DNA from: a bacterium
GTDB taxonomy: Bacteria; Margulisbacteria; Marinamargulisbacteria; SXXA01
DNA: 64,000 nucleotides
Reading direction: 5' to 3'
Assembly (NCBI GenBank): GCA_010028705.1
Contig: RHAI01000001.1
Coordinates: 3,104 to 67,103, forward strand
In this document: piece by piece, positions 1 to 58,533 of the stretch
How positions within the stretch are numbered: the stretch's first letter is position 1
How the letters are laid out: each line of letters begins with the position of its first letter
Program-made: the position numbers and the translations under genes
The notes under the pieces: generated by a model
The model's database searches: none
Told to the model about the DNA's origin: nothing
The model's input: only the letters and a program-made list of their open reading frames with translations

Positions 1-1160
1 GAATAAGTATAACGTGTTGATGGTAGGCTGTTACGTTGGACGGACGTCAAGTTTCCGCTGACATCGTAGGCGTATGTGACAGAACCCGTGACGCCATTCG
101 GCGCAGGGTAATTAATTTTGCTGACCCTGCAGATCGTCGTCGCAACCGGAACAGCTTGATATTCGAGTGTAATGGTTCGCCCCATCGAATCAAGAATCGA
201 CACAGGACGTAACCGTTTAGTGAGACTCGACATCGAATAAACCGGATTCATCGGCGCCGTCCCTGCATTAATCATGTCTATGAGGCGCTTATAAGTCTGC
301 CCAACAATGTGGGGTATTCGATATACTGCCAAATTGTCACTTTCATATTTACTCGTTTGGACCTGCATAATGTACCGGGTCGAATAGCTCTTGCTATCTT
401 GAATTGGAGGGCTAAATTCCTGATATGTTATCGTCGATTTATTTCCAAACAGGTCGCCAATAGACGTTAGGCAAAACCCACGAATGGTTAAGTCCTCGCC
501 ATATAAACCGTGAACCTCATTATAAAACTCCCTTTCAAATGAATAAACGATGCCATCCAGGGTAGTCATCACAACCTTGGCAATCGGCGATGTTCGTGAA
601 GACTGAGGATTTTGGATGCGAATTCCCGAAGCGTCGAAAAGTTCGATACGACTTTGGTTAGGGGTATCCCGGGTCCGATATTCTTCGCCCGCGTTCCCAG
701 TCGCATCAAAGATTTCTAAGGAGCCAGAATCCAAAATAACTCGACAATTTTTTAAGTCATATTCACGCACTACATACACTCGCATCCCGATGTTCATATT
801 CCAACCATTTCCTATCAAGGCTCCCCATAACCTGTTACTTGTCGCGGATATTTCGGCCGAAGAACGATAATTTCGACTGCTGTAGAACCGCGATAAATTT
901 AATCCAACCGGGCCTTTGCCAGGGAGTTCCAAATCGACTACAGCCTGCACGACATGTCCTCTCGCGATATCCAAATCGTCGTGTGTCGCACTCAACTCTC
1001 GTGTGGAATAAGAATTTACTTTTTCAAACCCGGCAACACCAGGTCCGTATGAAACCATGTCTGTCGCCGAAAACACGACTGTCGCGAAGGCTAGACAAGA
1101 TACGCATACACTGGTAGACAAACTGAGCCAACATCTCGATGTCATTAATAAGTTAGTCAT
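1..1160 (-). CDS. Secreted protein; N-terminal part only, the gene continues beyond the window start. It has a signal-peptide-like N-terminus and a YD-repeat-like motif near the window edge.
   Basis: Manual minus-strand translation from the ATG at 1158-1160 gives MTNLLMTSRCWLSLSTSVCVSCLAFATVVFSATDM..., a hydrophobic signal-like segment. The frame stays open to position 1. Near the edge it reads ...NYPAPNGVTGSVTYAYDVSGNLTSVQ, resembling the Rhs/teneurin YD-repeat consensus YxYDxxGxLxxV. The ORF track omits it because it is truncated. The plus-strand ORFs 616-870 and 839-1117 are antisense to it. Confidence 0.5.
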   Translation of the reverse strand, partial: MTNLLMTSRCWLSLSTSVCVSCLAFATVVFSATDMVSYGPGVAGFEKVNSYSTRELSATHDDLDIARGHVVQAVVDLELPGKGPVGLNLSRFYSSRNYRSSAEISATSNRLWGALIGNGWNMNIGMRVYVVREYDLKNCRVILDSGSLEIFDATGNAGEEYRTRDTPNQSRIELFDASGIRIQNPQSSRTSPIAKVVMTTLDGIVYSFEREFYNEVHGLYGEDLTIRGFCLTSIGDLFGNKSTITYQEFSPPIQDSKSYSTRYIMQVQTSKYESDNLAVYRIPHIVGQTYKRLIDMINAGTAPMNPVYSMSSLTKRLRPVSILDSMGRTITLEYQAVPVATTICRVSKINYPAPNGVTGSVTYAYDVSGNLTSVQRNSLPSTRYTY

Positions 1161-1164
1161 CTGT

Positions 1165-2583
1165 TTATTGGGACAGAGCCTTCAATTTCTTAATTTCGAA
1201 GTTTAACTCATTGAGCTGTTTTTTCAGCTGAATCACATACAAGGTCAACTCTTCAATCTTTTTCATATGAATTTGTTGCATTTCAGCGACATTGATTCCC
1301 TTCGATTTAATATCCGACTCGGACGGAACGTCGGGCAAATGTTTATTATTTTTCACATATTCAGCCAACTCCGACAGCGGTCGAAGCGAATAATTAGGCT
1401 CAAACACGTAATCCGCCCACCCGGTGGTCGACACGAAAAAATCTTGCGCGGTTATCGTGCCATCAACGCGGACATTTCCACTGATATGCAGCTTTTCTAA
1501 CGGAGCGGTGGTACCAATACCTATATTTCCAGACGCTGTGATAGTCAATCGGGGCGATAACGTCGACACCAATGATGACGAATTGGTTGAAAATAAAAGG
1601 CGACCACCGTTACCTTGCAGCTCGCTGATGCCCTGAATGCTGGCAAATCGAGGCGACGTCAACGAACTAAATACAATATTTAAGCCTTCTGAAGATCCAC
1701 TTCCAGGATCCTCTAAAGTCAAGCCATCTTGAATTCCGTAGATATTTGCCGGTCTCAAATGTAATAACGATTGTGGTACCATCGTACCAATACCAACTTT
1801 TCCGTCATACGTTATCCGCATACGCTCAGATGTTAATTGCGTCCCCGATGAATTCCCGGTATGAAATTGGAGGTTATGATTCCCTGACGGACCGACGGCA
1901 CCAATTCGAAAGCTATTATCCGCGCCGTAATGGCCCAAAACCCCATACTGGTTCTCTGGGGTTCCTTCCCCAATTTTAACCGTAACAATCGAGCTGCCGC
2001 CACCAAGATTTTGAAAATGAGCCGCTAAAAGCTCGGTATTTTGGCTATATTTAGCCGCGTGAAGCATCGCGTCTGGCGCCGTCGTCCCAATCCCCACGTT
2101 TCCGCTCACAACAGTTAACCCGCCCGACACCTGCATCGTGCCGCCATCTGGAATCATCAGTGTTTTTCGATTTGCTAAATAATCAAAAAAGTACAATTGT
2201 CGATCCCTGGCCGAATAGGTGATGTCCCAGCGTAATTGAGCCGTTCCACCGTTAGCGGAGGGTGCCATAAACATCAGCCCCAACCATCCATTGTTGGTAC
2301 CATTATTGTCGATTGTTTGTCCGGCAGATGTTGTCATGAGTGTGATAATCGGATTGGTATTTTTTAGGTGGAGGTAGGTTTGTGGGACATCGGTGCCCAA
2401 CCCGAAATTGCCATTAGATGAATTGTAATAGATCGCACTCGGGTCAAACGCAGCCCCAATGCTGACCGACATGATCACCACCCCCGCCGCCACCTGGACG
2501 ATACGCCCAGCGATGCGCTGATGCCATCCGCGACCGTCCCCGTTCGATGGTGAAAATAGCTGTTTACTGAATCGTTCGATCAT
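1165..2583 (-). CDS. Glycine-rich repeat protein with a tail-fiber-like C-terminal domain (intramolecular-chaperone / peptidase S74-like, coiled-coil tail)
   Basis: A 472 aa ORF with repeated G(N/K)(V/I)GIGTxxP...LH motifs. The C-terminus reads ...ITAQDFFVSTTGWADYVFEPNYSLRPLSELAEYVKNNKHLPDVPSESDIK..., followed by a heptad-like KKIEELTLYVIQLKKQLNELNFEIKKLK. This is typical of Bacteroidota 'tail fiber domain-containing' proteins. Its stop lies 4 nt from the start of the downstream gene. Confidence 0.6.
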   Translation of the reverse strand: MIERFSKQLFSPSNGDGRGWHQRIAGRIVQVAAGVVIMSVSIGAAFDPSAIYYNSSNGNFGLGTDVPQTYLHLKNTNPIITLMTTSAGQTIDNNGTNNGWLGLMFMAPSANGGTAQLRWDITYSARDRQLYFFDYLANRKTLMIPDGGTMQVSGGLTVVSGNVGIGTTAPDAMLHAAKYSQNTELLAAHFQNLGGGSSIVTVKIGEGTPENQYGVLGHYGADNSFRIGAVGPSGNHNLQFHTGNSSGTQLTSERMRITYDGKVGIGTMVPQSLLHLRPANIYGIQDGLTLEDPGSGSSEGLNIVFSSLTSPRFASIQGISELQGNGGRLLFSTNSSSLVSTLSPRLTITASGNIGIGTTAPLEKLHISGNVRVDGTITAQDFFVSTTGWADYVFEPNYSLRPLSELAEYVKNNKHLPDVPSESDIKSKGINVAEMQQIHMKKIEELTLYVIQLKKQLNELNFEIKKLKALSQ

Positions 2584-2611
2584 GTGTGACTCTCCTGTGT
2601 GGTGTGTTTAG

Positions 2612-3553
2612 TTACCATTTAATTCGGACCCCCAATCGATACGTGGGTTCCATACCATCGATCGACGGTTGAAAATATGACAAATCGATACCGGAGTTCC
2701 CGAGACGAAGACCGGTTCCAATGGTCCATCCCCGACTGGCGACGTTACCCCACACGGGAATATACTCAGACAGCCAATATTCAGCACCAGCGCGCGTCAA
2801 CGTTTCTTTTGGCCAATATCCGATCTCAGCAATGGTCGTCAAGCGATCATCAAGCCATCGATACCGCATCCCTAATTCAACCGCCGAATCAACCGCCTCA
2901 ATCGTTCGTGATGGGGTATCCCAAGCCATTTGGGGAGCGATAATATTCCGAAATACGACTCCGAAATCGCCCCAGGGCCACGGTGTCCACTGAAGGCCAA
3001 TATCCGCACCAACACCCGATCCAACAAATCCCGCGCCGGTCTCATATATCCATTTACCTGCCACCCCTAAAGAGATTTGAGGAGTGATACGATATGCACT
3101 GGCTATTGTAATTCCCCTACCCAAATAACTGAGAGGATCCCCGGTCTCGTGGAGTCGTTTATCCAATACAGACTGGGCCGTTTGAGGCGAAATCAGTTGG
3201 GTATTGATCATCCCGATACCAACTCCCAGTGTCGATGTCATCCACGCTACTTGGGCTTCGGTGTAATCAGACTCCAAATAATGATAAGCGGTTCCCCCAA
3301 TGATAAGGCCTTGATCAGCGGCAAGCCCGGCGGGATTGCCACATACCGCATCAAATCCCTGCTCAGTAGTAATCCCACCCAATCCCGTCAAATGAGCTTG
3401 GCCCATATTTTCCATAAATACCGCCGCACCTGTTGCGGCATAGCCACCTACCGACCATAGACCCACGCATCCAATAATCATGACCATTCCCATCAGTCGC
3501 GAGATGTGGCGTTTATCAATGATTGTCACAGTATTCGATCCCTTCCCATCCAA
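2612..3553 (-). CDS. Outer-membrane beta-barrel protein, possibly PorP/SprF-like
   Basis: A 313 aa ORF with an N-terminal hydrophobic segment. The remainder has an alternating Gly/aromatic-rich pattern typical of beta-barrels and ends in ...YRLGVRIKW, an aromatic C-terminus. It sits between a T9SS-CTD protein and a fibre-like protein, as PorP/SprF genes usually do. Confidence 0.4.
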   Translation of the reverse strand: MDGKGSNTVTIIDKRHISRLMGMVMIIGCVGLWSVGGYAATGAAVFMENMGQAHLTGLGGITTEQGFDAVCGNPAGLAADQGLIIGGTAYHYLESDYTEAQVAWMTSTLGVGIGMINTQLISPQTAQSVLDKRLHETGDPLSYLGRGITIASAYRITPQISLGVAGKWIYETGAGFVGSGVGADIGLQWTPWPWGDFGVVFRNIIAPQMAWDTPSRTIEAVDSAVELGMRYRWLDDRLTTIAEIGYWPKETLTRAGAEYWLSEYIPVWGNVASRGWTIGTGLRLGNSGIDLSYFQPSIDGMEPTYRLGVRIKW

Positions 3554-3567
3554 TAATTCACCGGACG

Positions 3568-4476
3568 CTATTTGATCACTAGCAGGCGATTTCGCCCCGA
3601 AACGCGATCACTGCCCGATCTGGCGGTTACAACAATGAGATAGGGTCCATTGGCGACCATCTCGCCAGTCCCATCACGACCATTCCATGAGACCCGATTA
3701 AATCCGGGCGACGCACCGTCACGCCCAGCAGGTACGAAATCGGTCCAAATCATACGGCCATTCATGGCAACAATTTTGATATCGATATCCGCCGCACGCG
3801 ATAATTGATACTCGATGACCGCCGTCGACTGATTCGGGTTTAACGGATTGGGCCCACTGATTAATCCAGATAGTCGAAGTGCGGATTCAGCGCGTAAATT
3901 AGAAATCGTACTGGCACTATAGTTCCCTCCAGAATCCCACACCTCAAGCCGCAACGAGTAGATTCCATTCGGCAATGGAGACGTGACTCGCATCGACGCC
4001 GTAACCGAGGACTGAGTCTCACCCTGGCGATTTTCAGATACAAGGGTCTGGTTGGAGGCGTCATTGAGTGAAATATTCCAACTCGATATCGTCGAATCGA
4101 TATCAAAAAAGCCCGCCTCAAACACCGTTGATACCCCAATAGAATCGCCCGTGCTCACCCATTGGCCCGCTGACATTACCCCTCGGATGCCGGGAGGGTT
4201 TATATCCAACGCCAATGGAACGGAGTCACTACCCGATGCCTTAAAATCAGACCCTACCCCTCGGTTGGCCGAACTCTCTTTATTAGCGGTTGTGGTCCGA
4301 ATCGGATTCGCCCCACCGCCGACCAACTGAACACGGGTCGGAGTAGCGGTATCGCGACGGATCTGATACTCGTTTGGAATGTCCGGACGATTGTTGGTCA
4401 ATGCAAGACTCGGCCGAGCGTACACTGCGCCTAGCATCATCAACAGAATCGCGATTTGAAATGGTAAACGAGTCAC
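3568..4476 (-). CDS. Secreted protein with a T9SS-type C-terminal sorting domain (FlgD Ig-like fold)
   Basis: A 302 aa ORF with a signal peptide (MTRLPFQIAILLMMLGAVYARPSLA). The C-terminal ~85 aa read NPLNPNQSTAVIEYQLSRAADIDIKIVAMNGRMIWT...RVSWNGRDGTGEMVANGPYLIVVTARSGSDRVSGRNRLLVIK. This matches the Por-secretion CTD pattern NPFNP..T.I.Y.L....V.L.IYD..G..V........G.H...W.G.......G.Y.....A......K. Confidence 0.55.
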   Translation of the reverse strand: MTRLPFQIAILLMMLGAVYARPSLALTNNRPDIPNEYQIRRDTATPTRVQLVGGGANPIRTTTANKESSANRGVGSDFKASGSDSVPLALDINPPGIRGVMSAGQWVSTGDSIGVSTVFEAGFFDIDSTISSWNISLNDASNQTLVSENRQGETQSSVTASMRVTSPLPNGIYSLRLEVWDSGGNYSASTISNLRAESALRLSGLISGPNPLNPNQSTAVIEYQLSRAADIDIKIVAMNGRMIWTDFVPAGRDGASPGFNRVSWNGRDGTGEMVANGPYLIVVTARSGSDRVSGRNRLLVIK

Positions 4477-4536
4477 TATAACCCCTTAAAGTTGTAAAAC
4501 GGGGGATTATAGGGATCGATGGTCGAACCGTCAACT

Positions 4537-6099
4537 TTACTTGGTATTTTTGACTATTGATTCCTCAAACAATGACAAGCCGGCCTTCGCACCTTCACCC
4601 ACCGCAATGACGATTTGTTTAAACGGCACCGTCGTCACGTCACCAGCGGCGTAAATCCCGTCGGAGCTGGTTTTACATTTTGAGTCCACAATGATTTCTC
4701 CCGACGCATTACAATCCACAACGCCACATACAAACTGGCTGTTTGGAACCAACCCGATTTGGACAAAAACACCCTCAACATCGAGAATCTGACGCTCTCC
4801 GGTCGATCGATTTTCAACCGACAAACCGACTACTTTTTGACCGTTACCTACCACTTCGACGGGAGCCGCATGGGTCACAATAGAAACATTGGGTAATCCT
4901 ATCGCTTTATCCACCAAAATTTGGTCAGCCTTCAGCTGTGGAGCAAATTCGACAACCACGACTGACTGGGCAATACCCGCCAAATCAATCGCCGCCTCAA
5001 TACCTGAATTACCCCCACCCACCACCGCCACCGATTTCCCCTTGTAGAAGGGACCGTCACAGTGCGGGCAATAGGCGACGCCTCGGCCAATGTACTCCGC
5101 CTCCCCGGGCACACCCAGCTTACGCCACTGAGCTCCCGTCGCGACAATAATCGATCTCGCACGCAGTGATTCCCCACTCGATAAATGCAGAGTTTTTATC
5201 ATACCGGTATCAATTCCGACGACTCGCCGGTTTTCGTAGCAGTCGATGCCATTCTCCGTAGCATGGCGCCGCAAATTAGCCGCTAAATCCGATCCCTCGG
5301 TATAGGGAATCGAAATAAAGTTCTCGATTCCCTTTGTATCATTTAACTGCCCCCCAATTCGGTCGGCCACAATTGCCGTTCGCAATCCCTTACGGGCGGT
5401 GTAAATTGCAGAACTGATTCCAGACGGCCCGCCGCCGATGATGGCCACATCCACTTCCGGTAATTCTTGGGGACTGTTATCCGCCGACTCATCCGACCCC
5501 ACATGCGCCGAAATGGCCTCGATCAGCTCCATTAAATTAGCTCGCCCCGAACTCACCAGATGCGTTCCGGACATCACACTGGGGACCCCCTGGATACCCA
5601 ACGCAGTAATCTGGTCTGGCACATAGGCCCCATCGACCATTTCATGCTCAAAATCAGGATGAATTAACGCCATTTGATTGAGTGCCTGAACAACATCCGG
5701 ACAATTTTCGCACGTGAGAGAGATAAATGTTTTGAGTCGGATCGGCCCCCGAAGGTGTCGGATACGACGCTGAATCCCATCATCTGGCAATTTGCCTTTA
5801 CCATCACTATTCAGTAGGGCAACGATTAGCGATGTAAATTCATGTCCCGTCGGGATTCCGGTAAAGCGAATACCCGTGGGACCGTGAACCGTATGAATGT
5901 GCAACTGAGGTACCGGCGCCATCTCCCCTCGTTCAATAACCTGAACATGAGGTGCAACCGACGCAATATCACTCAGCAAGGCCATCAATGCCGGACCATC
6001 CGGATGGGAGGTCGGATTCACCTGACACACAACCGTCGATGTCAACACACCTAACACCGTTTTGAGCTGAGCTTTTATTGAATCGTTCATCGTGTCCAA
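4537..6099 (-). CDS. ahpF: Alkyl hydroperoxide reductase subunit F (thioredoxin-reductase-like flavoprotein)
   Basis: A 520 aa ORF with an N-terminal CxxC (LTCENCPDV), a FAD/NAD Rossmann fold (GGGPSGISSAIY, GGGNSGIEAAIDLAG) and a redox-active CPHCDG. It lies immediately downstream of ahpC. Confidence 0.85.
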   Translation of the reverse strand: MDTMNDSIKAQLKTVLGVLTSTVVCQVNPTSHPDGPALMALLSDIASVAPHVQVIERGEMAPVPQLHIHTVHGPTGIRFTGIPTGHEFTSLIVALLNSDGKGKLPDDGIQRRIRHLRGPIRLKTFISLTCENCPDVVQALNQMALIHPDFEHEMVDGAYVPDQITALGIQGVPSVMSGTHLVSSGRANLMELIEAISAHVGSDESADNSPQELPEVDVAIIGGGPSGISSAIYTARKGLRTAIVADRIGGQLNDTKGIENFISIPYTEGSDLAANLRRHATENGIDCYENRRVVGIDTGMIKTLHLSSGESLRARSIIVATGAQWRKLGVPGEAEYIGRGVAYCPHCDGPFYKGKSVAVVGGGNSGIEAAIDLAGIAQSVVVVEFAPQLKADQILVDKAIGLPNVSIVTHAAPVEVVGNGQKVVGLSVENRSTGERQILDVEGVFVQIGLVPNSQFVCGVVDCNASGEIIVDSKCKTSSDGIYAAGDVTTVPFKQIVIAVGEGAKAGLSLFEESIVKNTK

Positions 6100-6135
6100 C
6101 CTCCTAATGGTGACTCGGGAATCCCAGAGCGCAGA

Positions 6136-6735
6136 TTACAGTTTACCGACTAAATCTAAGCTAGGTTCCAACGTCGATTCACCGGGATTCCATTTGGCTG
6201 GACATACCTCTTTTGGGTGTTTCGCGATGTATTGTGCCGCTTGGACTTTGCGAAGTAGCTCGTCGGCGTTACGACCGATCCCATTATCTGTTACTTCAAT
6301 CGACTTAATGGACCCGTCGGGCGCCACGATAAACGTCCCACGTCGCGCAATCCCATCCTCTTCGTTATAGACCCCAAAGGCACGAGATATCCGTGCGGTC
6401 GGATCCGCTAACATTGGGAATGTGATAGTTTTAATCGTGTCAGAGGCATCATGCCATGCCTTGTGGGTAAAATGGGTATCGGTGCTCACGGACACCACTT
6501 CAACGCCCATCGATTGAAGTTGGGGATATTTTTCGGCAACGTCAGCCAATTCGGTGGGACACACAAACGTAAAATCCGCCGGATAGAAAAAGAACACCAC
6601 CCATTTTCCGGAAAAATCATTTGAACTGACATCGATAAATGTATTGGCGTGGTACGCTTTTGCTGTGAATTCGGGGAGTTTAGAATTAATTGTTACGGTC
6701 ATTGAACATCTCCTTAAAAAATTTGATGGCGCCAT
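6136..6735 (-). CDS. ahpC: Peroxiredoxin AhpC (typical 2-Cys)
   Basis: A 199 aa ORF with the FTFVCPTEL peroxidatic Cys motif and a resolving Cys near the C-terminus (EVCPAKW). Confidence 0.9.
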   Translation of the reverse strand: MAPSNFLRRCSMTVTINSKLPEFTAKAYHANTFIDVSSNDFSGKWVVFFFYPADFTFVCPTELADVAEKYPQLQSMGVEVVSVSTDTHFTHKAWHDASDTIKTITFPMLADPTARISRAFGVYNEEDGIARRGTFIVAPDGSIKSIEVTDNGIGRNADELLRKVQAAQYIAKHPKEVCPAKWNPGESTLEPSLDLVGKL

Positions 6736-6773
6736 TGTCTCGGAACATCACGCCTATTTCCAATTCAAAAACA

Positions 6774-6798
6774 CTATCATATAATAGTTTTAAACTAT
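6774..6798. promoter_or_regulatory. Candidate OxyR/LysR-type operator in the ahpC-oxyR divergent intergenic region
   Basis: The sequence CTATcatataATAGttttaaaCTAT contains an ATAG-N7-CTAT dyad plus an extra CTAT half-site. It resembles the OxyR ATAGnTnnnAnCTAT repeat architecture and sits between divergent ahpCF and oxyR. Confidence 0.4.
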
Positions 6799-6829
6799 CA
6801 TAAATTTTTTACAATCCGACAAACCTATC

Positions 6830-7738
6830 ATGATTTCGATGAGTCAAGTGGAATATATACTCGCGGTGGCACGTACCGGGCATTTCGGGAAAGCGGCTCG
6901 GGAATGCCATATCAGCCAACCGTCCTTGTCCTCGCAAATTCAAAAAGCCGAGATCCATTTCGGTGTGACCCTATTCGATCGGAGTACAAAGCCTGTGACC
7001 GTCACGGAAGCCGGGCAACCCATTATCGACCATGCCATGGTGTTGATGGACGACTATCAGCAATTTGTCACTGCCACGGCCCGGCAAACGCCATTAAGTG
7101 GGACGTTTCACCTGGGCACCATTCCTACAATTGCGCCGTACTTATTACCGATGATTCTGCCCACCTTTTCTAAGACATATCCACACATTCAACTCACCGT
7201 ATCGATTGAGAAGACGCACACTCTCCTTGAGATGATGGATAGCCATCGTCTCGATGCCGCCATCCTAGCGACCGAACACGATGACCATCGACTGCACCAG
7301 GATCCCGTCGGATCCGATCCATTTTGGGTTGTAAGCTCAGACCCGGACATTTTGAGCCATTCGACCGTGACCCCGGATCTCCTCCACACCGTACCGCTGT
7401 GGCTATTAGACGACGGGCATTGTTTTCGGGACCAAGTGATCGACATGTGCCACCTCGATATCGGCCAACAGGGACTGCCTAATGTTCAATTTCGAGGTGG
7501 TAGCCTGGAAACCTTGATGCATTTAATCCAAAACGGTATCGGAACCACGTTAATTCCCGAAATGGCCATTCGATTTCTGCCAGCCAATACCCAGACCGCC
7601 ATCCGTCCGTTGGCCGCCCCCACCCCCGCTCGCACCATTCGTATCTCCCGGCGCAGCAAAAATCCCAAACGGTCGATTGCAGCGATTTTTCACACCCTGT
7701 GTCATGACGCGATGACGGCACCGCATGGGATGGGATAA
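6830..7738 (+). CDS. oxyR: LysR-family hydrogen-peroxide sensor/regulator OxyR
   Basis: A 302 aa ORF with an N-terminal LysR HTH (VEYILAVARTGHFGKAARECHISQPSLSSQIQKAE). It has a redox Cys pair spaced like OxyR C199/C208 (GHCFRDQVIDMCH). It is divergent from ahpCF. Confidence 0.8.
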   Translation: MISMSQVEYILAVARTGHFGKAARECHISQPSLSSQIQKAEIHFGVTLFDRSTKPVTVTEAGQPIIDHAMVLMDDYQQFVTATARQTPLSGTFHLGTIPTIAPYLLPMILPTFSKTYPHIQLTVSIEKTHTLLEMMDSHRLDAAILATEHDDHRLHQDPVGSDPFWVVSSDPDILSHSTVTPDLLHTVPLWLLDDGHCFRDQVIDMCHLDIGQQGLPNVQFRGGSLETLMHLIQNGIGTTLIPEMAIRFLPANTQTAIRPLAAPTPARTIRISRRSKNPKRSIAAIFHTLCHDAMTAPHGMG

Positions 7739-7743
7739 TCCCG

Positions 7744-9567
7744 CTACGACGGGTTGGATTCCGACGGCAATATCGCTTCGCCCCGTTTGTCGGCCAAGTT
7801 CCAAAACTCCCAAAACCGTCCCCGCCGCTCAAGTAACTGATGGAGGGAACCTATTTCGATCACGCGCCCCCCATCCAAGACAACAATGCGGTCCATTTCG
7901 GCAATCGTACTGAGCCGATGGGCAATGACAATCGCCGTGACGCCACCCAAAAATCGATGCAATGACTCTTGAATTTTTTCTTCGGATTCGACATCCAGAT
8001 GAGACGTCGCTTCGTCCATTAATATGATATCGGGACGCCGTGCGATCGCACGCGCAATTCCCAACCGCTGACGCTCCCCTCCCGATAGCTTTACCCCTTT
8101 CTCACCAATCATGGTGTCGAGGCCATCCGGTAATTTGGCCACTAGATCTCTCAGGTTGGCCGTATCGATGACACTATCCAACGACGGGTCGGTGCTGTTA
8201 TCGCCTGAGGTGGCGATCATAATATTATCCCTCAAAGACACATTGAATACTTCCGTGTCCTGTAATACCACCGACACATGGTTAAAATAATCCGAGGACT
8301 TGATATCCGTGATCGATACATCATCAAATTGAATATCGCCGCTAAATCCCTCGCGTTCTTTGAGTAACAATTTGAAGAGAGTCGATTTTCCGGCACCCGA
8401 CAACCCAACAATCCCAACCTTCTCGCCACGATGAATCGTGAGCGATATGTCATGGAGGACGGGGACCTCCGCATAGGCAAATGACAGGTGGGTCAGGGTC
8501 AGGCGCTGCCACTGGCTCGGGAAGGCACGTTTATCCGTGTCATTTTCAATCACGATTGGGGTCCGTAACAGGTCCCGTAATCGTGAGATGCTGAACTGCG
8601 CGACCATCACATCCATTGATACCGACGACAACTCATCGATGGCTGTTCGTAAATCCGAAAAGTAGCTATTGAATAAAATGAGAAATGCCAGCTCATACCG
8701 GCCAATAAAAATCCCATAAATTATCCACCCCACCATTGCCACACGGGCCACGCCTTCCCAGATCGCCAGTACCATATTACGCGATTGATACCGATAAATT
8801 CGGATGGCAATCCGATTCAATACCGCCTCGGATCCATTCCAAAGCCGATCCAAAAACCGAGAGGTAATCCCCATCGCTTTGACCGTCCGAATCGTGTTGA
8901 TCGACTCAAATACGATGCCGCTGAGCTGTTCCTCGTAGTCATTCACCACTCGTGCGGCCGCACTAGCCTGCCGCGTTAGGTACAAGGAAAGTGCAAAATA
9001 GCTCATCAGAAATAGCACAACACAGGCCACAATCCGGTGATCAAACTGAGCAATCACCACCTGAATCGCCACGAGATGGACAATGATTTGAATAATATTC
9101 ATAAACCAAATTCGAATCAGGCGATTGAAGCCATCACTGGCGTTTTGAATTCGCTTCACCTTGTTGCCGGCATTTTCGAGCTCATGCCACCCCATGTCGA
9201 GGCGAAACAAGTGAGTCACCGCCTCCAGTGTACAATCAACCGACACGCGCTCGGCCACCCAAAACCCATACCGTTTCCCAACGTAATGGCAGACATTTCG
9301 ACCGATGACAGCCACCACCCACAGTCCCAACACGACAGCCATCGGCACCACGGATTGGCCCGGGTGATAGTGTGTGATCATCGTTACAATTTGAGCGAAC
9401 GCGTACGCTGGAAACAACCACAGAACATCCCCAGTCATGCGAACCAGGCTGGCAAATATAAACTGCGAACGATATCGATGGAGTCGGCCCGCCATGTCTC
9501 GCAACAGTTCACGCATATAAACCACCCTACCAAAGACCCGCGAATTAAACCATTCGTGCGCTGACAA
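7744..9567 (-). CDS. ABC exporter with fused permease and ATPase
   Basis: A 607 aa ORF with about six predicted TM helices in the N-terminal half. The C-terminal NBD carries Walker A (GLSGAGKST), the signature LSGGERQRLGIARA, Walker B (ILMDEATSHLD) and an H-loop. Confidence 0.8.
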   Translation of the reverse strand: MSAHEWFNSRVFGRVVYMRELLRDMAGRLHRYRSQFIFASLVRMTGDVLWLFPAYAFAQIVTMITHYHPGQSVVPMAVVLGLWVVAVIGRNVCHYVGKRYGFWVAERVSVDCTLEAVTHLFRLDMGWHELENAGNKVKRIQNASDGFNRLIRIWFMNIIQIIVHLVAIQVVIAQFDHRIVACVVLFLMSYFALSLYLTRQASAAARVVNDYEEQLSGIVFESINTIRTVKAMGITSRFLDRLWNGSEAVLNRIAIRIYRYQSRNMVLAIWEGVARVAMVGWIIYGIFIGRYELAFLILFNSYFSDLRTAIDELSSVSMDVMVAQFSISRLRDLLRTPIVIENDTDKRAFPSQWQRLTLTHLSFAYAEVPVLHDISLTIHRGEKVGIVGLSGAGKSTLFKLLLKEREGFSGDIQFDDVSITDIKSSDYFNHVSVVLQDTEVFNVSLRDNIMIATSGDNSTDPSLDSVIDTANLRDLVAKLPDGLDTMIGEKGVKLSGGERQRLGIARAIARRPDIILMDEATSHLDVESEEKIQESLHRFLGGVTAIVIAHRLSTIAEMDRIVVLDGGRVIEIGSLHQLLERRGRFWEFWNLADKRGEAILPSESNPS

Positions 9568-9653
9568 TGGCGCCCGGGGGATTCTCGACCTATGTCCCTC
9601 ACATACAGGGTCTGCTACGCGTTATCGGGGGCTCACTACCGGGTTATCGGACC

Positions 9654-10310
9654 CTATTTTATGCCAATCAATTTATGCGATTGGGGAATCACCCGTACGT
9701 CCGCTAATTTTTGATGAGCAAAATTGTAGGCTCTCTCAATATCCTCAATGGTCGCACGGTCTTTGATACCCCCGAACGGAGTCACGGGTTGAATTATAAA
9801 CGGCACATCCGGCGCTACCGTCGCGACAGTTTGCACCATTTTTTTGAGATCCAACACTGGAAACCCGCGGGTCAGCACCCATTTTACAAATACGTTCGGG
9901 CGTCCCCGAAGGATCGTCATAAAATCTGCAAATTCTTTATCAAATCCAGGTTTATAATCTACGGAAAAATAGGTAAATAAATCCACTACTTCTTCAAGGT
10001 GCTTCGGTAAGGTCCCATTGGTTTCCAAATAAGCCGGTACTGGGATATGAGGCAATAGTTCTTTAATTGCGGCCACCTGAATCAGCGGCTCGCCTCCCGT
10101 TATTGATATCGAATGGGGGTTTTTCTGAATCAATGGGTGAAGCTCGTCGAGCACTTTTTCTAACGTGTAGGGTTTACGCTGATGGATAAAATCAGGTTCA
10201 TCGCAATACTCGCAATGGATATTACATCCATAAAACCGAAGAAAAATTTGGGGATACCCGATAAAGGGGCCTTCCCCCTGAAAACTATAAAAAATATCTT
10301 TAATGTACAT
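9654..10310 (-). CDS. queE: Radical SAM 7-carboxy-7-deazaguanine synthase (QueE-like)
   Basis: A 218 aa ORF. Its N-terminus (MYIKDIFYSFQGEGPFIGYPQIFLRFYGCNIHCEYCDEPD) matches the QueE signature IFxSxQGEG...FxRxxGCNLxCxYCDT, including the Cx3CxxC cluster. Its start overlaps the upstream helicase stop by 1 nt. Confidence 0.65.
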   Translation of the reverse strand: MYIKDIFYSFQGEGPFIGYPQIFLRFYGCNIHCEYCDEPDFIHQRKPYTLEKVLDELHPLIQKNPHSISITGGEPLIQVAAIKELLPHIPVPAYLETNGTLPKHLEEVVDLFTYFSVDYKPGFDKEFADFMTILRGRPNVFVKWVLTRGFPVLDLKKMVQTVATVAPDVPFIIQPVTPFGGIKDRATIEDIERAYNFAHQKLADVRVIPQSHKLIGIK

Positions 10311-12436
10311 TAGAGTCGTTTGACATCGGCGTATTTCGCCATCACCTTCCGGGTGTGATCCGTAAATTGAATATTAAGCACTAGTTTGTCCTCTGAGCCT
10401 TCGATGGATTGAACGATCCCTTTCCCCCATTGCCCGTGGTCAATCCATTCACCCACGGTGAACTCCTGAAACGACTTCCCGCCACCGGACCCGCCCGTGG
10501 GGGTCCAATTATCAAGCGTATTTCCATTCATTTCGACCCAGCGAGTGAGGCCGGTACGCTGGGAATCTGTCACCGATTCGGACACCATGGCCCCCACACA
10601 CTGGGACGGCCATTCATACGCAAACCGAGACAGTTGGGTCGGCTGATCATGCGCCACATGACGCTGAAATGATGCACACAACGACAGATGATGGGTGGCC
10701 CGGCTAATGCCCAGATACACATACCGTCGTTCTTGAGCTAACAGATCCGGGCGATCGATAGCTGAACCGTGTGGCAAGGTCCCCTCTTCAAACCCAGGAA
10801 TAAACACGCATCGGAATCGACGGCTTTTGGATGATTTAAGTGGCATTAATGTGACGGCGTCACCCGACGTAGGGGCATCATCACTGAGTTGCTGAGTCGT
10901 CACCTGAGTGAACACCTGATCGACGGTCCACTCGTTCTCGATGGCGGCATCGATAAACTCGTCAATCGATTGAAGTTGGTCCAAGGATTCAAGCGTGTTT
11001 TCTTCATCCAGGAGCGATCGATACCCACTGTCCCGTGCGATATTATCCAACACGACCCCGGCTAAAATGTCGGGATTTTCTTTAATTTCGGCCTCCCAAT
11101 GAGTGAGCAAATCCACGAGACCTAAGATTTTAGGCTGAACCAAATCGGATAGGCGATCCGTATCTTGCAGGTCAAAGACACCGTCCGAATGCGTGGGCAT
11201 ACACGTTAGCACCGTCGAAATCTCGGGTTCGGTCAGTTGAAATGGCGCTATCGACAACAACTGCGCCAACGCCTGACGATCACAGGGGTTCATCAACAAG
11301 CGCAGATATAACATTAAATCTCGAATTTCACTGTGACCAAAGGGGGTGTGACGTCCCATACTGCGGAGCCGAATCGCGTGTAATCGCAACTGCTCTTCAA
11401 GATACACGGCGTGAGACCCCGCACGATACAAAATACAAAAATCGTTATACGACCACCGTTTTTCCCGACGCATCGATTCAATCGTCTGTAAAATATACTG
11501 GCTTTCCTCCAGTTCACTGGCCGTCACCATCACCGTCACTTTATCCGTTTCCTGTGAAACATCCGCCACAGGTTGGGGAGATGTGGATAATGCATTGACG
11601 AGAGTATTTATGACTGGTGTTCGGCCCCACAACTCCAGCAACTCGATGGTGTGCATCCCTGGGACCGTCGCCAAATCTGTGAAGGGGTCATAGCCATCCA
11701 TCGTCTCATCGGATATCCGCTGCCCCGGGTCGATGGCAACCGTGACATGTATCCCCGCGTCCACCGCCTCACGAATCAGCTGGACCGCTACGGGCGACAG
11801 GTCTTCCCCATGATCAATAAGCCAGACGGGATGGTCATCGGCCATGCGTTGCCGAATATCCGGAGCGGTTTGAAACAGCCGCAGCGTGAGGGCCAGAATG
11901 TCCTCCACGTTAATCGCATTCGATCGACGGAGATACTCCCGATACTGAGTCATCGCCAGATCGACCCGGTGAGTATCGTGCCGATCATCCGCCGTCGACG
12001 CCACATGCTGGGAGTCCCGATGAATACGCGCCACAAGATCTCGTGGCGCCAATCCAATCCCTTCGAATTGAGGATCATTTAGAATCTCGATGGCGACCCG
12101 AATCGATTCAATTGGGTCAAACACAGTAAAATGGGGCGCCAACCCCGCTAACGCCGCGTGGGATCGTAGCCACCCCAAACACACCAATTCGATACGATTA
12201 AACTGAACTTTTAGAACATCGTTCCCGACAATTTCACCGGTCCATGCCCGCCAATCGTTCAGTGCATGAGCCGACCCCGACATCGCGATCAGTGACGGGG
12301 TAGCTACGGCTTCCAGGAGATATGCGATTTTATGGGCCAACAGGGTCGTTTTACCGGTACCGGAGGCCCCAACAATCATGAGTGGCGAATCGGTATATCG
12401 GATCGCGTCGTGTTGTGTCGTCGTAAATGTCGTCAT
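10310..12436 (-). CDS. UvrD/PcrA-family helicase-like protein with a degenerate motif II
   Basis: A 708 aa ORF. The Q-motif and Walker A match UvrD (TTTQHDAI...PLMIVGASGTGKTTLL). Motif VI reads VYLGISRATHHLSL, and there is a UvrD C-terminal domain (EFTVGEWIDHGQWGKGIVQSIEG...). Where DE(F/Y)QD is expected the sequence is WLIDHGEDL. Confidence 0.7.
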   Translation of the reverse strand: MTTFTTTQHDAIRYTDSPLMIVGASGTGKTTLLAHKIAYLLEAVATPSLIAMSGSAHALNDWRAWTGEIVGNDVLKVQFNRIELVCLGWLRSHAALAGLAPHFTVFDPIESIRVAIEILNDPQFEGIGLAPRDLVARIHRDSQHVASTADDRHDTHRVDLAMTQYREYLRRSNAINVEDILALTLRLFQTAPDIRQRMADDHPVWLIDHGEDLSPVAVQLIREAVDAGIHVTVAIDPGQRISDETMDGYDPFTDLATVPGMHTIELLELWGRTPVINTLVNALSTSPQPVADVSQETDKVTVMVTASELEESQYILQTIESMRREKRWSYNDFCILYRAGSHAVYLEEQLRLHAIRLRSMGRHTPFGHSEIRDLMLYLRLLMNPCDRQALAQLLSIAPFQLTEPEISTVLTCMPTHSDGVFDLQDTDRLSDLVQPKILGLVDLLTHWEAEIKENPDILAGVVLDNIARDSGYRSLLDEENTLESLDQLQSIDEFIDAAIENEWTVDQVFTQVTTQQLSDDAPTSGDAVTLMPLKSSKSRRFRCVFIPGFEEGTLPHGSAIDRPDLLAQERRYVYLGISRATHHLSLCASFQRHVAHDQPTQLSRFAYEWPSQCVGAMVSESVTDSQRTGLTRWVEMNGNTLDNWTPTGGSGGGKSFQEFTVGEWIDHGQWGKGIVQSIEGSEDKLVLNIQFTDHTRKVMAKYADVKRL

Positions 12437-12446: not shown

Positions 12447-13568
12447 CTAATGTGTGAGTGGGTTGCGATTCCATCGATTGATGTGTGGGGTCCACTTCAT
12501 CGAGGATGCCCTGACCTGAAATTCCCCATCGTTTTGACCAAATTCCACCACCCCGTCCATCAAATATTTGATATTGTTCAGGGTCTGGTCGGGAACGGTA
12601 CCCTCTTCCATCAAAAATAGCGTCGTCACACCACCAAACGAAATCGCCGTTCGTGCAATCTGACTCAAAAATCGTTGAACCGAAGGCAGATCGAAGTTAA
12701 TTAATAAGCTCGAAATAGAGTCGACAACCCGACGCCCTCCCAATTTACTTTGAACGGTTTGCCCCAATTCGAAGCTTGCATCTGAAATAATCCCGGCTAA
12801 TTGATTCAATTCCAACATACCGTTTAAGGCAAATCGTTCGGACTCCGGTGCCGAAAACGTCGACCAGGAGTAGGCATCCACAAACCGGAGTAGGCATAAT
12901 GACTCGAGCTCGGTCACTGTCGTTTTAAGATCTTTATCCATAATCCGCCGAACCTGCTGCGGATTATCATCCAATGCCACAAAGAGACATCGCTCGGATC
13001 GCTGTAATCCGCTCACCATAAACTGGCGCGCAAAGGTGGATTTCCCGCTACCTACCGGACCGATCACTAAAATATTCGAGCCTTTCGGAAGACCGCCGTA
13101 CAATGCTTCATCCAACGACCCAATACCCGTCGATACGGTGTCGATATTGACTGGCTCAGCCATATCCCGTTCGCGGGGAGCCACTATCTCCGGTTTGGGT
13201 CGAAAGCGAAATAGCAAGGCTTTGGCGCGCGCCTTCAACTCTTCGATATTGAATGGTTTCGTCACGAAATCGTCAGCCCCTTCTTCAAATCCCGTGAGCT
13301 TGTTGTACTCGTCACCCAATGCCGAAATAATGATGATCGGGGTTTCCGCGATATCCGGATGAGATCGGACCGCCTTACACACCTCAAAGCCGGTCTTTTT
13401 AGGCATAATTATATCGGTGATAATCAAATCTGGACGTTCCCGAAGCGCCACTTCGATGGCCTCGTCACCGTCACTGGCGGTCACCACATCCATTCCAATG
13501 TCTTTGAATACCATCTCCGTCAACATCAGAACATGATATTCATCGTCAGCAATCAAGATTTTTGTCAT
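12447..13568 (-). CDS. Response-regulator receiver domain fused to a KaiC/RadA-like RecA-superfamily ATPase
   Basis: Start chosen at MTKILIADDEY. The longer ORF to 13655 would overlap the upstream gene. The REC domain reads ILIADDE...DLIITDIIMPKKTGFEVCKAVR. The KaiC-like domain has GIGSLDEALYGGLPKGSNILVIGPVGSGKSTFARQF. Confidence 0.7.
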   Translation of the reverse strand: MTKILIADDEYHVLMLTEMVFKDIGMDVVTASDGDEAIEVALRERPDLIITDIIMPKKTGFEVCKAVRSHPDIAETPIIIISALGDEYNKLTGFEEGADDFVTKPFNIEELKARAKALLFRFRPKPEIVAPRERDMAEPVNIDTVSTGIGSLDEALYGGLPKGSNILVIGPVGSGKSTFARQFMVSGLQRSERCLFVALDDNPQQVRRIMDKDLKTTVTELESLCLLRFVDAYSWSTFSAPESERFALNGMLELNQLAGIISDASFELGQTVQSKLGGRRVVDSISSLLINFDLPSVQRFLSQIARTAISFGGVTTLFLMEEGTVPDQTLNNIKYLMDGVVEFGQNDGEFQVRASSMKWTPHINRWNRNPLTH

Positions 13569-13575
13569 GCTACCC

Positions 13576-14316
13576 TCATATCGGCTGCCGCAATACAATG
13601 CCGCGTTGAGGCAAAATCTCAAACGAAAATTCTGACAAATCCACTCGCGTTCCACGCATCTTTTTTACCCGGACCGTTCGAATGTACTTGGTGTTTAGTT
13701 TGGTTAACTTCAAAATTATGATACCCGACGCCGCAAATTCCTCGATTCCATGGTGGCTAACCTTGTCACTACCGACCGGGGAATACGATGTCAGAAGAGT
13801 GGTGCAATCCGAAATATCTTCGATTGCAAAAATAAGCCGACGAATATACTCAGTAATCTCGGGAATATGCCGCTCAGAAAAAATAAGTGGCGCCACCGGA
13901 TCTATCACTAAACGGGTGGCCTTGAAGTCTTTGACATACCCCAGAACCTCTAAAATAATTCGATCAATATCGATCCCTGATGTTCCCATCTGGGCAGATG
14001 AAAAGTGGCTTGTCACATCAATAATCCGAAGCATCCCCTGTTCAAGATAGGTCTGCAATGACCATCCCAATGCCTCGGCATCGGCGATCACATGTTCGGG
14101 TTTTTCGTCGATCGAAATGTAAATTACACGCTCACCCAACCGAAGACCCTCCAGTAAAAACTGGAGTGTAAAAATGGTTTTACCCGCCCCGGGCTCACCG
14201 GCGACTAAATAGGATCGCCCCTTCGGAAACCCTCCGAATAATAATTGATCGAACCCTTCGACTCCACTACTCACTTTTAACATCGGCATAGGGTTCCAAT
14301 TTACAGTGATCGACAA
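13576..14316 (-). CDS. Single-domain KaiC-like (RecA-superfamily) ATPase
   Basis: A 246 aa ORF with SSGVEGFDQLLFGGFPKGRSYLVAGEPGAGKTIFTLQFLLEG and a C-terminal KKMRGTRVDLSEFSFEILPQRGIVL typical of the KaiC/Rad55 family. An alternative internal start (MPMLK) is possible. There is a 7-nt gap to the downstream REC-KaiC gene. Confidence 0.7.
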   Translation of the reverse strand: MSITVNWNPMPMLKVSSGVEGFDQLLFGGFPKGRSYLVAGEPGAGKTIFTLQFLLEGLRLGERVIYISIDEKPEHVIADAEALGWSLQTYLEQGMLRIIDVTSHFSSAQMGTSGIDIDRIILEVLGYVKDFKATRLVIDPVAPLIFSERHIPEITEYIRRLIFAIEDISDCTTLLTSYSPVGSDKVSHHGIEEFAASGIIILKLTKLNTKYIRTVRVKKMRGTRVDLSEFSFEILPQRGIVLRQPI

Positions 14317-17059: not shown

Positions 17060-17371
17060 GGATAAATACTAACTTAATTTTATAAACAAAGGTACCAGTT
17101 CGACGCGATGGACCATCGGGCAATTCAATCGCGACTAAATCGACCGAACGACTCGACTATCTTTAACGTTTGTGATCTTAAGGGTACACTATGGTCCAGA
17201 ATTTGGGACTGTTCCGATAACCAACTTTGGTTCAATCGCGAGTGGAATACATGCCCAACGGAGCGGTTACTCACTCACCACTGTGGCGCCAGTTGCGGGC
17301 CGTTGAGAGAGACCTTGTTTCGCCGAGTCCATGTGTACCCCTCGCTAAGATTTTTATTAAGGTGAGACACC

Positions 17372-20170: not shown

Positions 20171-20172
20171 GT

Positions 20173-20631
20173 ATGTTATCCAAAAAAACAAAATACGCCA
20201 TCAGTGCATTGCGAATCCTCGCCCGCCACGCTCACCCTGAGCCGATGTTAATTTCCGACATTGCTCAAAAAGGAGACATTCCTAAAAAATTTTTAGAACT
20301 CATCTTATTGGAGCTGAAAAAACATCACATCCTGGAATCCAAAAAAGGCCAAGGGGGCGGATATTTTTTAAAAATTAATCCTGAAGAGATTAGTATTGGC
20401 CAAATCATTCGAAAACTATCTGGCCCGATCGGTATGGTGTCGTGCGTGAATCGTGACGGATACCTACCCTGTGACGAATGTCCGGGCGAGGATTTATGTG
20501 GGCTGCGGGAAATCATGACCAACGTACTCGATGCAACGTGTCAGATACTCGACAACGAAACGTTGGCTGACTTATTGGTTCGCGAAGACCGCCTATTGCA
20601 GGAAAAGCGCGATTACATGTTTCATATATAG
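20173..20631 (+). CDS. Rrf2-family transcriptional regulator (IscR/NsrR-like) with a Cys-rich C-terminus
   Basis: A 152 aa ORF. The N-terminal wHTH reads MLSKKTKYAISALRILA, and the C-terminus carries a cysteine cluster (CVNRDGYLPCDECPGEDLC). Confidence 0.75.
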   Translation: MLSKKTKYAISALRILARHAHPEPMLISDIAQKGDIPKKFLELILLELKKHHILESKKGQGGGYFLKINPEEISIGQIIRKLSGPIGMVSCVNRDGYLPCDECPGEDLCGLREIMTNVLDATCQILDNETLADLLVREDRLLQEKRDYMFHI

Positions 20632-20633
20632 GT

Positions 20634-44621: not shown

Positions 44622-45470
44622 ATGGTAATATCTGATCCAATGAAAATTCGTCTTTCAAAACGAGGGGTGTGGCTACTAGCGCTTGTCATTATTGCGTGCA
44701 TCATGGGCCCATTACGAGGCGTAATCTCAAATACCCCTGGGGTAGGGGTCCCCTTCTTGTACATCTACTACTGGACTGACAATCTAAAATTTTGGGGAAC
44801 AAAATCGTTGTCACCATCGCTTCGTGGGCTTGAAATACCGACCGTGGCAGGGCGTCCGATTGGGACCGATCCAGTGGGATCTCATTTTCGCTCACCCAAT
44901 AGCTCCTTTGTTCTGACCTCCAATCCTACCCCAATTTACACCCGCCCCAGCCAATCCAGTCGACGAATTCGAATGATACAGCCCGGCTATCGTGTGCGAG
45001 TGGTTTATCAAAAAGATGATGTATCTGTTTCAGACTCGAATGGTCGTGGATTATGGGTTTTTCTGACCATGGAAGATGGCAAACGTCCCATCGGATGGGC
45101 GATCAATACGACACTAGGGTATCAGGATAAATTTGCACCGCCCGCGCACTGGAACATCCCTTATTTTTCTCTGTGTATCGGTGAATATTGCGCCAGCTTC
45201 AAAGTCAAACCCAGCGGTCGATTTTATGAGACCTGGGATTCGATTGGTAAAGGAATAGAGATGAGAGGGAAAAATACCGGTCAGATTTTCGAATACCAGT
45301 CGTTAATATGGGCGAAACAAGACGATCCCGAGGATTATGATGAGCTCATTATTAAAGACAAGGCGAAAGGAATTCGCCATGAAGATAAGTACCGTGATGA
45401 ACCAATCAAGGTGACTCGGTCATATATAAAATCCATTCGATCGTCTCGCGACTACGTATTAAAAAATTAA
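44622..45470 (+). CDS. Hypothetical membrane-anchored protein (N-terminal TM; SH3-like middle region)
   Basis: A 282 aa ORF with an N-terminal hydrophobic helix (VWLLALVIIACIMGPL). No recognised catalytic motif was found. The call is tentative. Confidence 0.35.
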   Translation: MVISDPMKIRLSKRGVWLLALVIIACIMGPLRGVISNTPGVGVPFLYIYYWTDNLKFWGTKSLSPSLRGLEIPTVAGRPIGTDPVGSHFRSPNSSFVLTSNPTPIYTRPSQSSRRIRMIQPGYRVRVVYQKDDVSVSDSNGRGLWVFLTMEDGKRPIGWAINTTLGYQDKFAPPAHWNIPYFSLCIGEYCASFKVKPSGRFYETWDSIGKGIEMRGKNTGQIFEYQSLIWAKQDDPEDYDELIIKDKAKGIRHEDKYRDEPIKVTRSYIKSIRSSRDYVLKN

Positions 45471-57140: not shown

Positions 57141-57147
57141 TGATTCC

Positions 57148-57355: not shown

Positions 57356-57385
57356 ATGAATCATCAAGAATTAAGCCGAGGAAAC

Positions 57386-58528: not shown

Positions 58529-58533
58529 GTGAA

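Follow-up and report, generated by a model that had tools for sequence, protein, structure and literature searches.

Four genes lying side by side at one end of a 64,000-nucleotide stretch of DNA from an uncultured freshwater bacterium of the Margulisbacteria (assembly GCA_010028705.1, contig RHAI01000001.1, positions 3,104 to 67,103; this whole 64-kb stretch is hereafter the window) are predicted to encode a protein with a C-terminal sorting domain (CTD) of type IX secretion systems (T9SS), an outer-membrane barrel of the PorV/PorQ family, a beta-helical fibre and the start of an Rhs/YD polymorphic toxin. We refer to these genes and their products as G1, G2, G3 and G4, respectively. Each part is solidly identified and the genetic linkage among them is shown, and the four genes probably form one surface toxin-delivery device, since the same gene set recurs in distant relatives. 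On balance, we favour the reading that they are a single conserved module for placing a toxin on the cell surface, in which the G1-G2 pair would aid the export or display of the tag-less fibre and Rhs protein for contact-dependent antagonism. An earlier note on this DNA had described a co-oriented cell-surface operon with the look of a fibre, adhesin or toxin-delivery assembly, and that description holds, reinforced by the conserved synteny presented here.

Layout of the cluster and its recurrence in relatives

All four open reading frames (ORFs) are on the minus strand in the same orientation and occupy positions 1-4476 of the window. G1 (3568-4476, 302 aa) begins with GTG. The ORF of G2 extends over 2612-3553 from a TTG codon, and homologues favour the ATG at 3493, which gives a gene at 2612-3493 encoding 293 aa; the spacer between G1 and G2 is accordingly 14 nt with the TTG start or 74 nt with the ATG start. 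G3 (1165-2583, 472 aa) follows after 28 nt and G4 (1-1160) after another 4 nt, the window holding the first 386 codons of G4 before the gene continues past its edge. All four proteins open with 12 residues of strong hydrophobicity (mean Kyte-Doolittle 2.35-2.54), which fits a signal peptide as judged by inspection. Upstream on the same strand lies ahpF, and the 60-nt gap between ahpF and G1 holds an AAGGGG ribosome-binding site, 7 nt 5' of the GTG start, and a promoter-like site. The latter (TTGACG-17 nt-TATAAT, minus strand, 4506-4534, between the ahpF stop at 4537 and the G1 start) is sigma-70-like at 11/12 positions and matches by consensus only; over 1-7000, sites of this kind are in total no more numerous than in shuffled sequence. 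No terminator-like site or hairpin was found in any intergenic gap of the cluster. Identical proteins are recorded in NCBI, ENA and Logan assemblies, including an NCBI entry identical to G3 ('hypothetical protein EB093_00010'), and homologues stand in the same order in other lineages; the four are therefore real genes and not chance ORFs.

Related loci were collected by exact-protein look-ups and by scans with a signature of the G3 N-terminus, and were compared by BLAST; the scan with the N-terminal alignment (A5) yielded five metagenome loci and one genome locus. The full order G1-G2-G3-Rhs is found in locus L012, where G1, G2 and G3 are 52, 51 and 56% identical to those of the window and the Rhs N-terminus is 83% identical. 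The G3 homologue of this locus lies in two ORFs of 329 and 286 aa (9902-11782), reflecting a frameshift or an assembly error. Locus L006 has G1-G2-G3 before its contig ends, and a groundwater metagenome-assembled genome (MAG) from New Zealand (L008, L009 and L015) has a G1 of 410 aa followed by G2, with 31-32% identity, and by G3, in which the contig ends. Two loci whose 5' ends are cut, L013 and L014, retain G2-G3-Rhs, with identities of 27, 34 and 26-34% for the three proteins in L013 and with an Rhs 31% identical over ~1300 aa in L014. The order G2-G3-Rhs is thus kept down to ~27-34% identity, and G1 is present wherever the contig extends far enough. In addition, a gap of only 4-10 nt separates G3 from Rhs in L012, L013 and L014 as well as in the window, across lineages only ~30% identical.

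Other loci vary what stands behind the first two genes. L016 and L017 have G1-G2-Rhs with the fibre absent and the Rhs gene overlapping G2 by 4 nt, L018 has G1-G2-fibre on a cut contig, and L005 has the different order G3-G1-G2. In L011, G1-G2-G3 is followed at 7861-10211 by a 620-aa lipase/alpha-beta-hydrolase-like ORF (Lipase_2, 29 bits) and a 163-aa ORF, which stand in place of the first ~900 Rhs residues, and then by the 3' part of an Rhs gene, 76-80% identical; the replacement may be an effector swap or a rearrangement. The constant core is thus the G1+G2 pair, followed, depending on the lineage, by fibre and Rhs, by a fibre on a cut contig, or by Rhs alone.

Between the two clades, that of the window and that of L012 and L011, the Rhs proteins are 76-83% identical, as against 51-56% for G1, G2 and G3, a difference which hints that the Rhs gene was recently exchanged or is under much stronger constraint. 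The separate history that these values suggest is what would be expected if G1-G2-G3 were a self-contained fibre or adhesin module, serving attachment or the recognition of prey or host, and the Rhs gene encoded an independent toxin next door, exported by a Sec or type II secretion system (T2SS) route, as polymorphic-toxin loci are prone to settle beside surface-protein genes. The gene orders of L018 and L005, both of which stop before a downstream Rhs could be ruled out, and the lipase-like gene of L011 in place of the N-terminal half of Rhs point the same way. The 2012 survey of polymorphic toxins is older than knowledge of the T9SS. Rhs proteins with signal peptides were placed there under general secretory or T2SS export (PMC3482391), as this alternative has it. 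The close spacing of G3 and Rhs in four loci whose lineages are ~30% identical argues against this alternative, and the Rhs gene is linked to the G1-G2 pair itself and not just to the fibre, because in L016 and L017 it directly follows that pair with a 4-nt overlap and no fibre is present. We regard an independent toxin beside a fibre module as the chief competing explanation but an unlikely one, and retain the single toxin-delivery module as the preferred reading.

The sorting-domain protein and its barrel

G1 comprises a signal peptide, a low-complexity linker, an immunoglobulin-like (Ig-like) domain at about residues 90-205 and a CTD encoded at 3571-3852 on the minus strand (residues 209-302). 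It matches the Pfam family FlgD_ig (PF13860) at 34.5 bits, above the cut-off of 27, and the NCBIfam model for the T9SS type A sorting domain (TIGR04183) at 24.3 bits, with a cut-off of 23. As in type A proteins, the domain stands at the extreme C-terminus (209-302 of 302 residues) of a protein whose N-terminus is, by inspection, a signal peptide. It contains GPNPLNPN, NGPYLIVV and a terminal RLLVIK, which we take to be the usual landmarks of a type A CTD. A sequence search of the PDB with G1 returned only marginal matches to FlgD. No enzymatic domain, and in particular no peptidase domain, was found in G1, and its orthologues at 27-52% identity adjoin G2 homologues. We therefore describe G1 as a small, predicted Sec-exported protein with an Ig-like domain and a T9SS-type CTD; the CTD had already been called, rightly in our view, in the earlier note, and its scores lie above the cut-offs of TIGR04183 and PF13860 and below that of Por_Secre_tail (PF18962).

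The same note had taken G2 for a PorP/SprF-like barrel, which proved to be the wrong family. G2 matches the PorV/PorQ model NF033709 at 36.7 bits (E 3.4e-9), with model positions 3-325 of 326 covered, and all 51 of the aligned G2 homologues match this model, the best at E 1.3e-37. Among these 51 homologues, PorQ, 'PorV2' and PorV models were matched by 50, 46 and 38, respectively. The PorP/SprF model TIGR03519 gave weak matches in only 2 of the 51 (best E 3e-4) and none at E<=1 for G2 itself. A broad profile (A6), made of the G2 family plus more typical PorV-family proteins, matched PorV of Flavobacterium johnsoniae (6H3I_F) at E 7e-48. The AlphaFold2 model of G2 has ~14 strands, with a predicted local distance difference test score (pLDDT) of 85 and a predicted template modelling score (pTM) of 0.81, and a Foldseek search of the PDB with it ranked PorV first (8GL6_F, TM 0.72, E 3.8e-12; 6H3I_F, TM 0.67), followed by TodX and FadL. 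With no TIGR03519 match, all homologues on the PorV/PorQ side and PorV as the best structure, a PorP/SprF identity is ruled out, and the profiles and the model together predict a compact, divergent FadL-like outer-membrane beta-barrel of the PorV/PorQ family. The family is rare: an exhaustive search of representatives found 229 at E<=1e-3 among 1.84 billion proteins. A word-index homologue search with G2 returned just one 97% twin, and a scan of genome contigs with G2 alone gave no loci.

In the T9SS attachment complex, as in Porphyromonas and Flavobacterium, PorV and PorQ anchor PorU and PorZ, respectively, which retain their CTDs, at the cell surface. G1 and G2 resemble the PorU-PorV and PorZ-PorQ pairs in combining a protein that would retain its CTD with a 14-strand barrel of the PorV/PorQ family. 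They differ from them in that G1 has only 302 aa and neither a sortase domain nor the beta-propellers of PorZ, in that G2 is short (~275 mature residues compared with ~370-400 in PorV) and scores below the family cut-off, and in that genes for a fibre and an Rhs toxin accompany the pair. The logic of a dedicated barrel gene adjoining the gene for the surface protein it serves is shared with SprB-SprF and with the pairs of type B CTD proteins and PorP/SprF-like barrels. In contrast to these, G2 belongs to another barrel family, the CTD of G1 is of the type A/FlgD-Ig kind and not type B, and the G2 gene stands downstream of a small CTD protein and not of a giant adhesin.

These likenesses bring in another explanation, namely that G1 and G2 are general attachment or shuttle parts of a T9SS, reduced versions of PorU/PorV or PorZ/PorQ that serve all CTD cargo, and that their location has no specific meaning. 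Residues 62-292 of G1 do align with positions 848-1086 of the 1095 of the PorU model (E 1.2e-13), that is, with its last ~240 positions, the C-terminal Ig-plus-CTD portion, and the fold of G2 is nearest to PorV. G1, however, cannot be the sortase, since it has no peptidase domain, and the rarity of the G2 family does not suit a general component. The neighbourhoods of G2-family genes also speak for cognate pairs, as a specific CTD-protein gene lies directly upstream of the G2-family gene in every examined context with enough contig. This extends to distant members: in L019 and L020 the barrel gene begins <=2 nt from the end of the gene for a large surface protein with carboxypeptidase-regulatory repeats, and these large proteins (L019, 2-3588; L020, 97-3142) end in a G1-like CTD (E ~1e-10). 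The barrel protein of L020 carries an extra C-terminal extension of ~130 aa. Further, the MAG of L008 has additional small CTD proteins beside other fibres. At positions 1-5189 of L008, a 198-aa protein with a signal peptide and a CTD is encoded by a gene that shares 4 nt with the start of a fibre gene. The fibre, of at least 2394 aa, has G3-like repeats and a Peptidase_S74 domain, and this is a second case in which a tag-less fibre is paired with a small CTD protein. We thus think it quite improbable that G1 and G2 are general parts. The rule seems to be that a CTD-protein gene is followed by the gene for its own PorV/PorQ-like barrel, and in the G1-G2 sub-clade the CTD protein seems to be minimal, with separate genes after the pair for the large CTD-less fibre, the Rhs protein or both.

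The fibre and the Rhs protein

G3 is built of a signal peptide, four beta-helix modules, each capped by a motif, and a conserved C-terminal helical module; no CTD was found in it. The capping-loop motif GxxG(I/L)GTxxPxxxLH occurs at residues 58, 161, 261 and 352, encoded on the minus strand at 2368-2412, 2059-2103, 1759-1803 and 1486-1530 (span 1486-2412). More than 4378 homologues were found, nearly all labelled 'hypothetical' and the named ones mainly from Bacteroidota, Ignavibacteriae and Balneolaceae, and 79 of these were aligned. Across the 79, the G and P positions of the capping loops are invariant or near-invariant, and the family is characterised by a variable number of modules, each closing with GNVGIGTTxPxxKLHV. 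Searches of Pfam (at E<=1) and NCBIfam with G3 gave no match. The profile of the 79 members (A2), on the other hand, matches crystal structures of Bdellovibrio mosaic adhesive trimer (MAT) fibres (8OND, E 7e-32; 8OML, 1e-21; 8OJN, 6e-15), and a Foldseek search of the PDB with the G3 model, a monomer with an overall pLDDT of 71.7, returned the same MAT structures together with the L-shaped tail fibre of phage T5. PHROG tail-fibre families matched G3 at E 1e-22 and 5e-18, and BFVD models of tail-fibre and S74 proteins from phages gave E values as low as 1e-13. G3 is thus a beta-helical fibre with homology both to MATs and to the tail fibres of phages, and the earlier description of it as tail-fibre-like agrees with all four lines of comparison.

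In Bdellovibrio, MAT fibres such as Bd2133 and Bd3182 are described as displayed on the surface and binding prey glycans, and motifs of the G3 type form in them the capping loops of trimeric beta-helix domains (PMC10769870). According to the same paper, their conserved N-terminal domain of ~130 aa is without a solved structure. G3 shares with the MATs of Bdellovibrio bacteriovorus, as presented there, the signal peptide, modular length, phage tail-fibre ancestry and homologous beta-helix modules with a capping loop. It differs from them in having 472 aa compared with ~1000, in carrying at its end neither an S74 chaperone nor a variable adhesive tip but a family-conserved helical coiled-coil module, and in having a CTD protein, a PorV-like barrel and an Rhs protein encoded beside it, no such partners being mentioned for MATs in the available part of PMC10769870.

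The resemblance of G3 to phage tail fibres would also suit a reading of G1-G4 as unrelated neighbours, or as a degraded prophage or tailocin remnant without a joint function, which we consider very improbable. The four ORFs are all intact and closely spaced, and their order is kept down to ~27-34% identity in different genomic backgrounds. No other phage genes were found near G1-G4, and the flanks hold ahpCF and genes for an oxyR-type regulator, an ABC transporter and a uvrD-type protein. A prophage or tailocin origin is rejected given these housekeeping flanks.

The C-terminal module of G3 is encoded at 1168-1419 on the minus strand (residues 389-472) and reads WADYVF..Y.L.PL.E...Y...NKHLPDVPS...KIEELTLY, followed by a long helix with a predicted coiled coil. 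With ~85 aa it is the best-conserved segment of the aligned family, in which the consensus is W.DYVF...Y.L..L.E......NKHLP.VPS......G.......KIEELTLY, then a coiled coil. Residues 401-472 are modelled at a pLDDT of 89-96, with helices at 403-413, 422-428 and 432-471. The earlier note had picked out G(I/V)GIGTT...LH repeats and a DYVF...HLP..PS end with a terminal coiled coil, both of which are present, and had read the end as a tail-fibre/intramolecular-chaperone C-terminus. The chaperone reading falls, and a Peptidase_S74 chaperone (PF13884) is ruled out: no hidden Markov model match was obtained, the SDxxxK motif is not conserved ('SDIKSK' of G3 corresponds to PSAxEVxxNG in the family consensus), and the homologue P0023 holds both a true internal Peptidase_S74 domain (64.8 bits) and a separate G3-type module at its end. 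No Pfam or NCBIfam model matched the module, and it merits a family model of its own. We infer that it acts in trimerisation, in retention, or in both.

G4, as far as it lies in the window, has a signal peptide, a DUF6531 domain at nucleotides 720-974 (31 bits, cut-off 24.1) and a first YD repeat at nucleotides 36-95, with YAYDVSGNLTSV at residue 363; its RHS_repeat score of 19 bits is under the cut-off of 22. Longer copies of the gene were available from two closely related sequences. L001, with 99.96% identical DNA over 12 kb, extends it to 1417 aa and includes the end of the RHS core (RHS_repeat, 60.6 bits). L007, with 97.9% identical DNA, has the entire gene, of 1654 aa from the signal-peptide start, with RHS_repeat at 78.9 bits, YD_repeat_2x at 48.3 (cut-off 15.8) and the Rhs-associated core TIGR03696 at 72.9 bits (cut-off 32.5) over residues 1402-1474. 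The core closes with ...NLIDPDGM, after which comes a glycine-rich tip of ~180 aa without a known family. The YD-repeat identity proposed from the window is thus upheld, the YD motif being found there and many more repeats in the longer copies. Extension to the left, which the earlier note had called for, also brought the Rhs-associated core, a toxin tip and immunity candidates (L001 and L007). G4 is, by its domain content, the start of a true Sec-exported Rhs/YD polymorphic toxin.

The description of the tip and of the candidate immunity genes comes from L007, a ~98%-identical strain and not the window's own. There, positions 17339-20918, 3' of the Rhs gene, encode a membrane protein of 165 aa, an orphan ORF of 301 aa with an Rhs core end and tip, a multi-pass membrane protein of 127 aa, a signal-peptide protein of 301 aa and one more fragment of an Rhs core end. 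The orphan ORF scores 73.8 bits with TIGR03696, and its tip differs from that of the main Rhs protein. Neither the toxin tips nor the immunity candidates of L007 had a significant match in Pfam, and the sole PHROG match at the toxin locus covers the Rhs core end and not the tip. By its gene content, this region forms an orphan toxin/immunity array, and the whole is built as polymorphic-toxin loci usually are. That the tips are rich in glycine and partly hydrophobic, and that the immunity candidates are membrane proteins, may faintly point to toxins acting on membranes.

G4 shares with the Rhs/YD toxins, among them the PAAR-Rhs proteins of type VI secretion systems (T6SS), WapA of Bacillus and TcB/TcC of the Tc toxins, its YD repeats, a core with a DPxG end, a variable tip, a downstream immunity candidate and an orphan fragment (the last seen in L007). 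Unlike T6SS PAAR-Rhs proteins and Tc toxins, it begins with a Sec signal peptide and DUF6531 and has no PAAR, VgrG or TcA-like partner. It also carries no CTD, and the 64-kb window has no T6SS genes. The cell-wall route of Bacillus WapA is inapplicable in the diderm context of G4. Its association with a fibre, a PorV-like barrel and a CTD protein also sets it apart from the known Rhs toxins.

Proposed delivery model, genomic surroundings and significance

The interactions and the directions of transport in the following scheme are ones that we infer. By analogy with PorV-PorU and PorQ-PorZ, G2 would bind the uncleaved CTD of G1 and keep G1 on the outer face of the outer membrane. The Ig-like domain of G1 would then dock or escort the CTD-less fibre and Rhs protein, either through a T9SS translocon or by tethering both outside, and the clade-specific first module of G3 (YDPxxxYYN...TSAGQTIDNDGTNNGW) may help in the tethering. 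The trimeric fibre would touch or bind a neighbouring cell, and the Rhs shell would free the toxin at its C-terminus through autoproteolysis at the DPxG motif, as is usual. Carried to its full extent, the scheme amounts to a new Rhs delivery route in diderms, in which the small G1 adaptor and its dedicated G2 barrel would carry a CTD-less Rhs protein and a phage-like targeting fibre piggyback, either via a T9SS-type translocon or at a point downstream of it, and would then keep the two at the surface; we offer this as a tentative proposal that is possible but rather doubtful. In functional terms it recalls the CdiB/CdiA two-partner systems (type V secretion), which likewise combine a barrel and a filament with a polymorphic toxin at the C-terminus, an immunity gene and orphan modules. 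This is an analogy only, without homology, as G2 is FadL/PorV-like and not of the Omp85/TpsB kind and the filament is a different protein from the toxin carrier.

Several observations weigh against the reading of G1-G4 as one toxin-delivery module. G1 exceeds the TIGR04183 cut-off by only 1.3 bits and, at 18.9 bits, is under the cut-off of 27 of the Pfam family Por_Secre_tail (PF18962), and the NF033709 score of G2 is below the curated cut-off of 90. The T9SS core genes (SprA, PorK-N/GldK-N and PorU) are absent from the 64-kb window. The toxin tips belong to no recognisable family, and the activity suggested for them is a guess. The synteny sample is small, comprising about seven lineages and mostly short metagenome contigs. 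Finally, the four parts are not obligatorily linked, because the Rhs gene of L011 is truncated, with a lipase-like gene intervening, and L016 and L017 are without the fibre.

The rest of the window is ordinary chromosome, with ahpCF, a LysR (oxyR-type) regulator, an ABC exporter, uvrD, KaiC-like genes, spoT and gcvP, as well as valS, clpB, DabAB, two ankyrin-repeat proteins, enolase and dnaA-dnaN-recF. The last three, with a DciA gene after them, lie at 55797-59601, and the GC skew turns from negative to positive near 57-58 kb; the window probably spans the chromosomal replication origin. The ankyrin-repeat proteins (584 and 764 aa; 32368-34122 and 37891-40185) are unusual in a free-living bacterium and may point to interaction with eukaryotic cells. 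At 12447-14316, the gene for a response-regulator-KaiC fusion (402 aa) overlaps that for a stand-alone KaiC-like ATPase (246 aa) by ~80 nt on the same strand, and at 40437-43932 a DabB-like (Proton_antipo_M) and DabA pair forms a probable inorganic-carbon uptake system. Three ORFs, at 60656-62569 (637 aa), 47419-48543 (374 aa) and 44622-45470 (282 aa), had no Pfam match and no NCBIfam match at E<=0.001, and two large proteins of the window had no exact match on record.

Each part of the module lies in or next to a known family, namely type A/FlgD-Ig CTDs, PorV/PorQ barrels, MAT/phage beta-helix fibres and Rhs toxins. In the open-access literature searched, we did not find this combination of Rhs with T9SS, PorV or a tail fibre described, and a literature search found no paper linking Margulisbacteria to the T9SS. 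Rhs toxins are widespread weapons, and how those with signal peptides cross the outer membrane and are targeted is poorly understood. The recurrent combination of an Rhs protein with a sorting-tag protein, a PorV-type barrel and a fibre provides a concrete candidate for such an export and targeting apparatus. Further, the findings on G2 suggest that PorV/PorQ barrels have diversified into private anchors for particular surface proteins, and small CTD-only proteins may be adaptors for tag-less cargo. If the proposed route is true, the module would be the counterpart, linked to a T9SS, of contact-dependent inhibition, and would occur in uncultured lineages of freshwater and groundwater that lie outside the well-studied Bacteroidota.

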